From IMG/VR virus record IMGVR_UViG_2540341031_000012: a stretch of 17,650 nt of DNA; one strand, 5' to 3'. Positions 6,001-9,000 of this stretch are shown here, one piece after another. Every line of letters begins with the position of its first letter. The stretch's first letter is position 1. Source of the DNA: a virus. Taxonomy: Duplodnaviria; Heunggongvirae; Uroviricota; Caudoviricetes. The position numbers are program-made.

Positions 6001-9000
6001 ACGTAGCCCTGATGCCCGGTGGTGTTGGCGAGCGGATTTTCCTGTACCAGAATGCTCAGATGCATTGCCCGGACAAGCGCCTCACAGGTTTCATTCAGGG
6101 CGTGTTCCAGCTCATGCTCTGCATACAGACTCAGAAGGTGATGATGTGCCTTCCGGTAGGCGGTGGCCGTGCTGTCACACGCCCCTTTCAGGCGTTCACG
6201 TTCGAAATTCAGCACCACGGCCAGATTGTCATATTCCTGTACCAGCTCCCGGCGTGCCACGCGCTCAATGTGGCGCTGTTTCAGCTCGTCGCTCAGGACA
6301 CCACCGGCTGCACGAAAGGCCGTGCGCCAGTCGTCAGCGTCGTTTCCGTCGGCCTGCGTCAGCGCATTTTTTTCCTGCTTTGCCCGTTCAATGGCCGTGA
6401 CGGTCTCATCCATCAGGCGGGCGTTCTCAAGGTGGGCGGCTCTGGCCTTTTCCAGTTGTGCCAGTGCGGGTTGCAGATATTCAGGGATGGTGTTGTCAGA
6501 CATTTTCCGGCTCCTCGTCACTTCAGGTTGAGAAAATTGTGACGTACACCGGACAACAACACGACGCATTGCAGATGTGCCAGCCCTGACACAGGAGACT
6601 CATCCTCAGACCGGCAAGCCAGGAAAAGGTCGCAGGAAAAACCGGCTTACTGTTTGTTTTTTTATATTTTACTGTTCACCTCTGTTCACCTTAAGAAAAA
6701 AGATAAGTAATACAGTAAGTTAAAGGGTGAACAATCGCAGTAATGACTGTTCACCGTCTGTTCACCACTGTTCACCCGCTCATGGACTTTTTGTGCTGTT
6801 TACTACTGTTTATTTTTATTAATTCACTGAAATAAATAAGAAAAAACAATTTGTATTTCACTATAAAAAATTCCAAGTCCTTCAGAACCCTTTGAGACCC
6901 TTCCAGTCCGGATGAATAAAAAATATACAGTCATTGTAAGGCAGCCTGAACAAATCCCCCCTGTTGCGTCTGCCAAAAATATTCACAAAATAAAGCGCTA
7001 CCCGAAGCCGGACGGACTTATCCGGTGCTGTATGGACATTAACGAGGTAGCCCGATGCAAGCTGTTTTTTCTTCCCCGTCTCCTGCCCCTGTGACGCCAC
7101 TGATGCCGCTGCCGGACATCACGCAGGAGCGTTTTTTACGTCTGCCGGAAGTGATGCACCTGTGCGGCCTGTCACGCTCGACCATCTATGAACTCATCCG
7201 TAAGGGGGAATTTCCGCCGCAGGTGAGCCTTGGCGGTAAAAATGTGGCCTGGCTGCACTCTGAAGTCACTGCATGGATGGCCGGGCGCATTGCCGGACGC
7301 AAACGGGGGTACGACGCATGATGATGCCCGCTCTGCAAAAAGTCCCTTTTTCTGGCTTGCCTTTTTCCGGCATTTGCGGATATAGTTTTTCCGCTGCCGC
7401 AAAATCGGCAGCCGGGCGTGAGAACCCGAGCAATCTAACGGCGACATATGACGCGCCATGCGTCTTTTTTTGTGTCGCAATCAACGCCACAGAGCGCCAG
7501 ATTATGGTGTGGTGTGTGGTCAGTCGTGCAGATGGCACTCCGTGCATCCTGCCCGCGTCCGCTCATTATGCCGCAGAGTCAATGGTAGCTCAGGCGGGGC
7601 AGCCTCCGGGCTGGCCGGTATCCGTTAGAGCCGGTATTCTCACCCCCGTCTGGGCTATCGCCATCGAGCGTGAGAACTCCGGCGATAGCGTAACCTGCTA
7701 TCTAACGGAGGCTGCCATCATGGCTACAACCCTTACCCCCTCATACCCTGAATTTGTCTTTGTGTTTGCCGCTGTCCGTCGCGCAGACCGCCATCCCCGT
7801 ATCTGTATGCTTCGCACCGTCGCCGGTGATGAACGCAGCGCCCGCCGTTCCCTTGTCCGTGACTATGTGCTCTCCCTTGCTGCCCGTCTGCCGGTTGTGG
7901 AGGTGTCCCGTGCGTAATAAAAAAGCCCCTCAGACCGTCTCAGCGCGTCATGACGCCCGTGAACACCTCAGCATTGAGGCTTACCATAAGCTCAACCGCG
8001 CCAGCGCCGTATCCCAGTTTGTTGGGGGTGATTTGATTCACCGTGAACTCTCCGGCCTGCATCAGCTCTACATTCCGCATATTTTCAGTTACCTGAATGA
8101 AGATATTGATTTTGTGCTGAATGAACTGAAAGCCAAAGGCCTGTGCCGCGATTTTCTCGCCCAGCAGAAAGACCGGGGAGACAGGACGCATGTTTGATTT
8201 TCCCCAGCCCGGTGAGATTTACCGTTCTGCCGGTTTTCCCGATGTGGCCGTGGTCGGCATTCTGGAAGACGGTATTCCGTGGGAAATGCCGTACCGCTGC
8301 CCGGAAATTGTCTGGAACCCGTACCGCCGTAAATTCAGTATCCTTGTGCGTATCCTCGCCGACGGGCGCACCACAGACATCCCGCTGGGGCGTTTTCTGC
8401 GGGAATTTACCTGTGACCGTCCTGACCTGTTTAAACGCAGCCCCGTAAACCGGCATGCGGTACTGAAAGAAATGGCCGGAGACCCGGAATTACAGAAATG
8501 GCGGGAGAAATATCTGGATATTTACCCGCAGGACACTGTTCCGGCCAGCCGGGCGGCACCGGTGGCGCGGGAATGGCGGGAAATTCCCCGCACGGAGCCT
8601 GACCCGGAAATCACCCCGGATAACAGTTACCGCAATTATCTGTAATTAAAAAACGACACCCGAAAAATTAAATGTGCGTATTCGCGCAGGGATACGCACG
8701 TCTTCAGGAGACGCAGATATGCCTTATCAGTTAATGCAACCGGCACGGAATGCAGTCATCTGTCACAGGGAGGAAAGCAAATGAAAACACCCTTACCGCC
8801 CGTCTTACGCGCTGCCCTTTACCGTCGCGCTGTCGCCTGTGCCTGGCTGACCGTGTGCGAACGTCAGCACCGCTACCCGCATCTCACCCTTGAATCACTG
8901 GAGGCGGCCATCGCCGCTGAGCTGGAAGGCTTTTATCTGCGCCAGCACGGTGAGGAAAAAGGGCGTCAGATAGCCTGTGCCCTGCTGGAAGATTTAATGG

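Follow-up and report, generated by a model that had tools for sequence, protein, structure and literature searches.

What is the function of two short direct repeats, and of a single element between them that is complementary to both, in the 17,650-nucleotide (nt) stretch of viral DNA recorded as IMG/VR IMGVR_UViG_2540341031_000012 (Caudoviricetes), which as a whole we call the window? A sequence-only reading of this DNA, made by a model, had taken the three elements for counterparts of seqA, seqC and seqB of the satellite phage P4, the pairing elements of an RNA-based immunity switch. We conclude that an antisense-RNA switch very probably maintains lysogeny and confers immunity at this locus, which belongs to a P4-type satellite prophage integrated beside ssrA in Escherichia coli. 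The CI RNA switch of P4 is already known from genetic and biochemical work that goes back to the 1990s, and the present locus is an ordinary one apart from a b-box allele that is unlike P4's.

The recognition boxes were read directly from the window. GTGAGAAC is present at 7418-7425 and again at 7670-7677, ATCTAACGG is present at 7433-7441 and at 7700-7708, and CCGTTAGA-GCCGG-TATTCTCAC is located between these direct repeats, at 7622-7643; every string quoted in the sequence-only reading was found in its place. The three elements are as follows.

7418-7441, + strand: seqA, with the a-box at 7418-7424 and the b-box at 7434-7441 (sequence, repeat search, alignment of 41 sequences).
7622-7643, + strand: seqB, inside CI, with b' at 7622-7629 in the second hairpin loop, GCCGG at 7630-7634 and a' at 7637-7643 in a single-stranded bulge (sequence, Rfam, alignment).
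7670-7709, + strand: seqC, with the a-box at 7670-7676, CCGGC at 7679-7683 and the b-box at 7701-7708 plus A7709 (sequence, alignment).

Specifically, the a-box GUGAGAA (GTGAGAA) of both repeats pairs with UUCUCAC (TTCTCAC) in a', and the b-box UCUAACGG (DNA TCTAACGG) of both repeats pairs with CCGUUAGA in b'. Both ends of the repeats had been described as complementary to the intervening element; this held for both boxes, but the a-box pairs over 7 nt only, the eighth base (C7425 or C7677) standing opposite A7636. Additional pairing of the downstream repeat with the central GCCGG, also claimed at the outset, is present at seqC only, through its CCGGC. At seqC the complementarity of the b-box extends to 9 nt (7701-7709 with 7621-7629), the ninth pair being A7709-T7621, which brings the totals to 7 + 8 pairs at seqA and 7 + 5 + 8 (+1) pairs at seqC. 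Both direct repeats and four inverted repeats were recovered independently by a repeat search. In dinucleotide-preserving shuffles of the region 7390-7725, an 8-mer with its reverse complement both upstream and downstream arose in 0.34% of 5,000 shuffles, and two such neighbouring 7-mers arose in 8 of 20,000.

The window is a segment of the E. coli chromosome in which smpB, ssrA (transfer-messenger RNA, 698-1060), an integrase gene, a variable hotspot, a P4 core and ypjA follow one another, an arrangement shared by 114 complete E. coli genomes; strain TUM9757 (NZ_CP128931) is among the candidate carriers of the element. Across 4462-11795 (7.3 kb) it is 97.75% identical to phage P4, and the gene order of the matching block is cos, psu, delta, sid, ori, vis, cI, epsilon, orf151, orf106, alpha, crr. 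Alignment supported the P4-type interpretation of the repeats: 7340-7930 is the P4 immunity region, with 95.6% identity over 591 nt (95.6-96.9% across comparisons), and the locus sits between vis and the epsilon-alpha replication operon of a P4-like satellite. Moreover, three Rfam models scored above their gathering thresholds on the + strand, namely C4 (7578-7665, 74.5 bits against a gathering score of 45), isrK (7393-7470, 72 bits against 50) and c4-a1b1 (7380-7432, 49.5 bits against 46.7). In work on P4 the IsrK and C4 families go by the names seqA and CI RNA (Barquist et al., PMC3632133). In all the defining features that sequence can test, the PLE promoter aside (its sequence is present), the locus is, as far as sequence goes, a member of the P4 system. 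Rfam models cover every part of it, yet the RefSeq regions that we examined carry only an "Icd-like protein" coding-sequence label, with CI RNA, seqA and seqC annotated in none; herein lies the value of the locus for annotation. The remaining parts, given with their open reading frames (ORFs), are as follows.

7055-7321, + strand: vis (ORF88), encoding an AlpA-type excisionase and regulator (ORF list; P4 annotation "excisionase and transcriptional regulator").
7318-7917, + strand: eta, a longer ORF within which kil is nested, with candidate ATG codons at 7318, 7321 and 7324 that give 197-199 amino acids (aa) (ORF 7273-7917; Pfam Phage_ASH, NCBIfam Icd-like).
7357-7386, + strand: the promoter PLE, consisting of TTGCCT, an 18-nt spacer and TATAGT (promoter scan).
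7393-7471, + strand: the leader RNA with seqA, containing hairpin 1 (7393-7412), hairpin 2 (7413-7428) and the terminator t1 (Rfam, terminator scan, conserved helices).
7584-7663, + strand: CI RNA (the cI gene), approximately 80 nt (Rfam C4, minimum free energy (MFE) fold, covariation; ends placed from P4 coordinates).
7707-7917, + strand: kil, with the Shine-Dalgarno sequence GGAGG at 7707-7711 and ATG at 7720 (ORF 7720-7917), 65 aa, Icd-like (sequence, NCBIfam).
7910-8197, + strand: epsilon, encoding the helper derepression protein (P4 annotation, identity to P4).

PLE was the sole promoter-like site in the scan. It agrees with the consensus at 9 of 12 positions, its hexamers are unchanged from P4, and its -10 hexamer lies where the P4 record X02534 marks a "consensus -10 sequence". 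In the leader that follows, the loop of hairpin 2 holds the a-box of seqA. The only intrinsic terminator in the scan, t1, is a GACGCG-CCA-TGCGTC stem-loop at 7450-7464 followed by seven T residues at 7465-7471; it lies between seqA and cI. Besides its 17-bp stalk, the folded CI RNA has a pair of small hairpins, a bulge that is left single-stranded and, at the 3' end, a GCCA tail (MFE -48.3 kcal/mol), and the small RNA of about 7590-7660 that the sequence-only reading had predicted agrees with it in position. In P4, CI reportedly measures about 79 nt, has its ends at P4 8501 and 8423, and is matured by RNase P and polynucleotide phosphorylase (PNPase) (Forti 2002, JMB, Journal of Molecular Biology). 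On the window these ends would fall on the G that opens the stalk (7584) and inside the GCCA tail (7662), and the mapped ends are structurally sensible.

The protein-coding parts overlap with the RNA parts. The vis stop codon and the first eta start codon overlap (ATGA), eta spans PLE, seqA, cI and seqC and contains kil as its C-terminal portion, and the Prokaryotic Genome Annotation Pipeline (PGAP) names eta "host cell division inhibitor Icd-like protein". The kil product matches NCBIfam NF033153 (phage_ICD_like) with 76 bits against a cut-off of 25; kil and eta are reportedly the subject of Forti 2002 (J Bacteriol). The GGAGG of kil lies 8 nt before its ATG, and the seqC b-box (7701-7708/9) overlaps it by 2-3 nt, in agreement with the earlier claim that the downstream repeat overlaps the ribosome-binding site (RBS) of the ORF at 7720. 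The further idea that seqC pairing could also block translation fits this anatomy, the ORF being P4 kil, and the same has been proposed for P4 (PMC10111431). The first downstream lytic or replication gene under the switch is epsilon, followed by orf151, orf106 and alpha (9116-11458).

The pairing was also put to a comparative test, by covariation. A Vis protein query of one-genome-per-species Enterobacterales assemblies gave 42 related loci, and the 39 that span the whole region were aligned with the window and P4, making 41 sequences, and scored against a specified structure. A lack of conserved complementary blocks in related satellites had been named as what would refute the proposal, and the opposite was found: the seqA:CI pairs were 100% paired, with 12 of the 15 changed on both sides (6 in the a-box and 6 in the b-box), and the 20 CI:seqC pairs were 99.4% paired, again with two-sided changes in 12 of them; the covariation score of this set was 0.626 versus 0.202 for shuffles. 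When the boxes were extracted directly, all 7 a-box and all 8 b-box pairs were present at both targets in 41 of 41 elements. Three of the five unpaired CI:seqC cells are therefore an artefact of a gap-adjacent b-box column. Pairing was 97.6-100% for the CI stalk, both hairpins of CI, the pair of hairpins in the leader and the terminator, with the stalk and hairpins of CI reaching 100% and showing covariation, and t1 was kept in all 41 sequences with one covarying pair. In control alignments with the partner slid by 1-3 columns, pairing fell to 33-54% overall and to 33-46% for the seqA:CI set.

We propose that the switch would operate as follows. Constitutive PLE would transcribe rightward through seqA, cI, seqC and kil and on towards epsilon and alpha, and the cI segment would fold into a tRNA-like cloverleaf and be cut out as a stable CI RNA of about 80 nt (approximately 7584-7663). 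On CI, the loop of a hairpin would expose b' and the single-stranded bulge would expose a', and through both boxes CI would pair in trans with nascent PLE transcripts at seqA and at seqC. Pairing at seqA would increase termination at 7450-7471 and so limit CI's own synthesis, whereas pairing at seqC would cover the kil RBS and halt transcription before the replication genes, leaving the prophage quiescent and superinfecting satellites of the same type blocked. In P4, as Briani 2000 is said to have reported, the t1 terminator behind seqA acts in CI autoregulation and depends on both CI and seqA, while t4 and the Rho-dependent timm lie beyond cI. When the seqA boxes were held unpaired, the predicted probability of the terminator stem at hairpin completion rose from 0.66-0.68 to 0.92-0.95; this folding result agrees with such an account of t1 and may be taken as a small computational hint. 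For P4, it has been described that PLE is constitutive, that its primary transcript is processed to stable CI RNA, and that pairing of CI with seqA and seqC on nascent transcripts leads to premature termination (PMC4825925, PMC10111431); the mechanism is also summarised in PMC3632133.

What has been shown for this locus is its anatomy, its homology to P4, its place in the RNA families, and the covariation of each box with both targets. Several points nevertheless weigh against the mechanism proposed above. The processing, stability and action in trans of the window's CI would carry over from P4 by homology, the termination sites are presumed from experiments on P4 as given in secondary summaries, and full-length folding predicts that seqB and seqC pair in cis. 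The last of these points raises the alternative of a purely cis-acting attenuator, in which seqB pairs with seqC or seqA within one nascent transcript and no free small RNA exists. MFE folds of 7570-7692 and 7393-7725 do favour an intramolecular seqB:seqC helix over the CI cloverleaf, and CI derives from the very transcript it regulates. However, the cloverleaf is conserved and covaries by itself in its 17-bp stalk and hairpin 1, it ends in the tRNA-like 3' GCCA tail expected of a processed stable RNA, and its stalk would be finished before seqC is made during transcription. Moreover, the P4 cI region supplied in trans confers immunity (PMC4825925), and pairing in cis leaves it unexplained that two separate targets track one seqB; we consider it distinctly improbable that the locus acts in cis only. 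A switch that is mainly translational, in the style of P1/P7 c4-icd-ant, deserves more weight, although we still think it rather unlikely. CI would then mask the kil RBS, and the stop in transcription would be secondary, through Rho-dependent polarity. The overlap of the seqC b-box with 2-3 nt of the Shine-Dalgarno sequence, the homology of kil to Icd and the alignment of the P1-like phages D6, RCS47 and JL22 at 72-74% over CI, seqC and the start of icd all speak for it, as does the description of eta and kil translation as preventing termination (PMC10111431). Yet seqA has no ORF to regulate and lies 8 nt upstream of an intrinsic terminator that every aligned sequence keeps. The P4 terminators t1 and t4 are reportedly Rho-independent (Briani 2000), which we count against a mainly translational mode. 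Translational masking is better seen as a component of the best explanation at seqC than as an alternative to it, and it cannot apply at seqA.

Two further alternatives concern whether the repeats act as RNA at all, and whether they still act. All three boxes lie inside the eta ORF, and the direct repeats encode the same dipeptide within each element (LT in the window, SQ in P4), as might be expected if they were protein-binding sites or a motif of the Eta peptide. What is conserved across the 41 elements, however, is the complementarity and not the sequence or the peptide; the CI copy stands in the reverse-complement sense and encodes an unrelated VR or CE; and structure-aware RNA models score above their thresholds. 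In addition, where pairs in the a- and b-boxes are not Watson-Crick they are G-U with respect to the + strand, which favours pairing of + strand RNA over a site at the DNA level. Because of the covariation pattern and these wobbles we regard a DNA- or peptide-level origin of the repeats as in effect excluded. It is also very improbable that the locus is an inactive remnant of a decayed prophage whose switch no longer operates. Many genomic P4-like elements are defective, eta is frameshifted in some relatives, and the right end of the element holds no duplicated ssrA 3' end (no attR copy of it was found at up to 3 mismatches in 17 nt, nor any direct repeat of at least 16 nt). Against this, every part is intact in the window, including the promoter, both targets, CI, the terminator, eta, kil, epsilon, alpha (780 aa), sid, delta, psu and int, which makes decay unlikely; and the 15 + 20 intermolecular pairs are all perfect, a state that would not last long without selection.

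Several other complementarities were noted around the antisense switch. The 3' strand of the CI stalk with the GCC of its tail (7654-7662) is complementary at 9 of 9 positions to 7681-7689, just after the seqC a-box. This helix is maintained at 99.2% in the 41 sequences with 3 pairs changed on both sides, and it would place the seqC a-box in a loop of 18 nt, much as hairpin 2 presents that of seqA; its thermodynamic probability is at most 0.11, and the changes may reflect few evolutionary events. CI hairpin 1, GGCAGCCTCCG (7598-7608), is complementary at 11 of 11 positions to the kil Shine-Dalgarno region, CGGAGGCTGCC (7706-7716), and 93% paired across relatives, which may represent a second masking route or a coincidence between two conserved sequences. 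As a helix, this match was unsupported, since it showed no covariation and was lost in the relatives L033 and L034, where hairpin 1 has changed. A hairpin in the seqC spacer (7684-7689 with 7697-7702) occurs in the MFE fold of the window, yet was 78% paired versus 77% in shuffles, a result partly due to poor alignment of the loop, and it was set aside. Extension of the seqA:CI pairing into the stalk was likewise dismissed as a GC-rich coincidence that is not kept in elements whose hairpin 2 is GGAA...UUCC.

We then asked how the element differs from P4 at the boxes themselves. The region 7390-7725 contains 20 differences from P4, of which 12 fall within the 24 nt of the three b-boxes (Fisher p = 7e-11), at 7435, 7436, 7438 and 7439, at 7624, 7625, 7627 and 7628, and at 7702, 7703, 7705 and 7706; all of them are compensatory. 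The P4 b-box and its partner are UUCACAGG/CCUGUGAA (DNA TTCACAGG/CCTGTGAA), whereas those of the window are UCUAACGG/CCGUUAGA (DNA TCTAACGG/CCGTTAGA), so that 4 of 8 positions differ in seqA, seqB and seqC alike. Cofolding of the whole CI with its targets in RNAcofold gave equal energies for cognate and non-cognate seqA and was uninformative, because loop-loop (kissing) pairs cannot form in it; duplex energies were computed instead on the exposed CI segment. Cognate duplexes came to about -25 kcal/mol at seqA and about -29 at seqC, as against -14 and -17 with both boxes differing. At seqA, the cognate value was -26.5, compared with -16.2 for window CI on P4 seqA and -17.2 for the reverse. At seqC, the cognate value of -31.9 stood against -28.6 and -23.9 for the cross-pairings, a smaller loss because the a-box and GCCGG are shared with P4. 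With a b-box that differs at half of its positions at all three sites, the window element is probably heteroimmune to P4. This does not amount to proof, and one finding counts against it: the a-box and the central GCCGG are the same as P4's, and cross-pairing is predicted to be weakened but not abolished (-16 to -17 at seqA, -24 to -29 at seqC). The locus would nonetheless offer a clean natural case of specificity change, with three coordinated 4-nt substitutions in a backbone that is otherwise 97-98% identical. The allele is a common one: 99 of 5,426 complete E. coli genomes contain the 48-nt CI core without a mismatch, among them one with a selC-integrated satellite whose integrase and hotspot are different. 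P4-like places number 1,268 across 1,056 E. coli genomes.

Variation at the boxes extends well beyond P4 and the window. Across the 41 elements, 5 alleles of the a-box and 11 of the b-box occur in 19 combinations, and every one of these is perfectly matched at seqA, seqB and seqC. Two loci, L047 (E. coli ST2747, NZ_CP007394.1 4681368-4681958) and L052, carry a further a-allele, GTGGAAA in seqA and seqC with TTTCCAC in CI, which is compensated at all three sites and is joined to the window's b-allele in L047 and to GTTATCGG in L052. The boxes also reassort across backbones with different integrases (ssrA versus selC), and different b-alleles are found at the same ssrA site. In E. coli 602354 (L045, NZ_CP025847.1, next to tRNA-Sec), a selC-integrated P4-like element has an immunity region 99.8% identical to the window's, together with an integrase unlike the window's and an AAA ATPase in the hotspot. 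Judging from such sequences, the immunity module is passed among satellites whose integration modules are unlike. A hybrid occurs in E. coli O145 RM12522-C8 (L050, NZ_CP035767.1 4445916-4446506), where seqA has a b-box of the P4 type, TTCACAGG, but the b' of CI (TCTTCGAG) and the b-box of seqC (CTCGAAGG) match each other and belong to another type; the same genome has a second P4-like place. This hybrid suggests recombination between seqA and cI and a dispensable match at seqA. Genomes with two satellites had differing box alleles in all five pairs examined (L056/L046, L005/L010, L025/L033, L034/L037 and L012/L018); in E. coli RM13752 (L056 and L046), for example, the b-box is GTTATCGG in the ssrA satellite and TCTAACGG in the second one. 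These differences are consistent with heteroimmune coexistence. We therefore raise, tentatively and with some doubt, the idea that the two recognition boxes form a combinatorial specificity code for P4-like satellites. If such a code is real, seqA (CI autoregulation) and seqC (lytic gene control) would be separately wired, and co-resident satellites could cross-regulate CI levels without shared immunity. As far as we found, a systematic two-box code has no earlier description, while the underlying principle is old (P1/P7, P4/phiR73). The table of alleles provides ready-made orthogonal antisense/target pairs for studying the specificity of two-box immunity.

Outside the immunity locus, the stretch 2553-4434 between the integrase gene and cos/psu contains two ORFs on the - strand, 2785-4092 (435 aa) and 2553-2771 (72 aa). 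Neither had a match in Pfam, NCBIfam or PADLOC, and the only hit was to PHROG 14906, of unknown function. The gop-beta-cII stretch of P4 is a known defence hotspot of P4-like satellites (PMC9122126), and otherwise similar ssrA satellites have NACHT or DUF2326 genes at the hotspot position of the window, which holds a candidate uncharacterised anti-phage gene. Copies of the GGTATACG repeat (ATTGGTATACG..TAGGTATACG) were seen at 1170-1225, just upstream of the integrase gene, and at 11857-11882, some 60 nt past crr; these are probably arm-type sites for the integrase and would mark where the element starts and stops. A pair of direct repeats of 121 nt each (11496-11616 and 11676-11796), which resemble one another at 81%, corresponds to the 120-bp repeats of P4 crr (cis-required region for replication). 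Finally, a YpjA/EhaD-type AIDA autotransporter gene at 12109-15493 on the - strand seems split into a 1009-aa ORF with 12 AIDA repeats and a separate 108-aa ORF holding the beta-domain end only; in a related genome the autotransporter is annotated as frameshifted.

The switch can be set beside several known systems. The retronphage phiR73, which integrates at selC, is a P4 relative whose immunity specificity is set by complementary RNA boxes, as proposed for the window; it is a retron carrier, whereas the window has no retron. It is known as a natural heteroimmune P4-like satellite (Sabbattini et al. 1996, cited in PMC7567579). IsrK of the Salmonella prophage Gifsy-1 is a structural homologue of the window's seqA leader, as the Rfam isrK match indicates, and a processed downstream RNA, STnc1160, has been proposed as the CI counterpart there (PMC4825925). 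In that lambdoid prophage, however, IsrK is a trans-acting activator of orf45-anrP translation, a role not known for the window's leader. Phages of the N15 and P1 types align over the CI core at 72-86%. The anti-immunity locus of N15, phiKO2 and PY54, with its CA RNA, has 77-84% nucleotide similarity to the window's CI core, and in phiKO2 and NAR688 the similarity extends over the seqA leader; unlike the satellite, these are linear plasmid-prophages in which the RNA controls an antirepressor operon and not satellite replication genes.

The c4 RNA of P1 and P7 (Rfam C4 RF01695, c4-a1b1 RF03163) belongs to the same RNA family as the window's CI, with a' and b' boxes and a1/b1 and a2/b2 targets. 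It is processed from the transcript it regulates, and its downstream target overlaps the RBS of an Icd-like first ORF, as in the window. The window thus has the immI features of a c4-family RNA with two boxes and two targets and of an icd-like ORF after the downstream target. In immI, however, ant is translationally coupled downstream of icd, whereas epsilon, orf151, orf106 and alpha occupy that place in the window; the locus would work like immI but, lacking the antirepressor gene, is not an operon of that type. The output in P4, moreover, is described as premature termination and not mainly as a translational block. P4 itself remains the closest relative: it has the same promoter, terminator, CI fold, a-box and central GCCGG as the window element. 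The two differ in integrase and attachment site, which is ssrA here, and at the hotspot, where P4 has gop-beta-cII and the window element has instead a 435-aa ORF of no assigned function.

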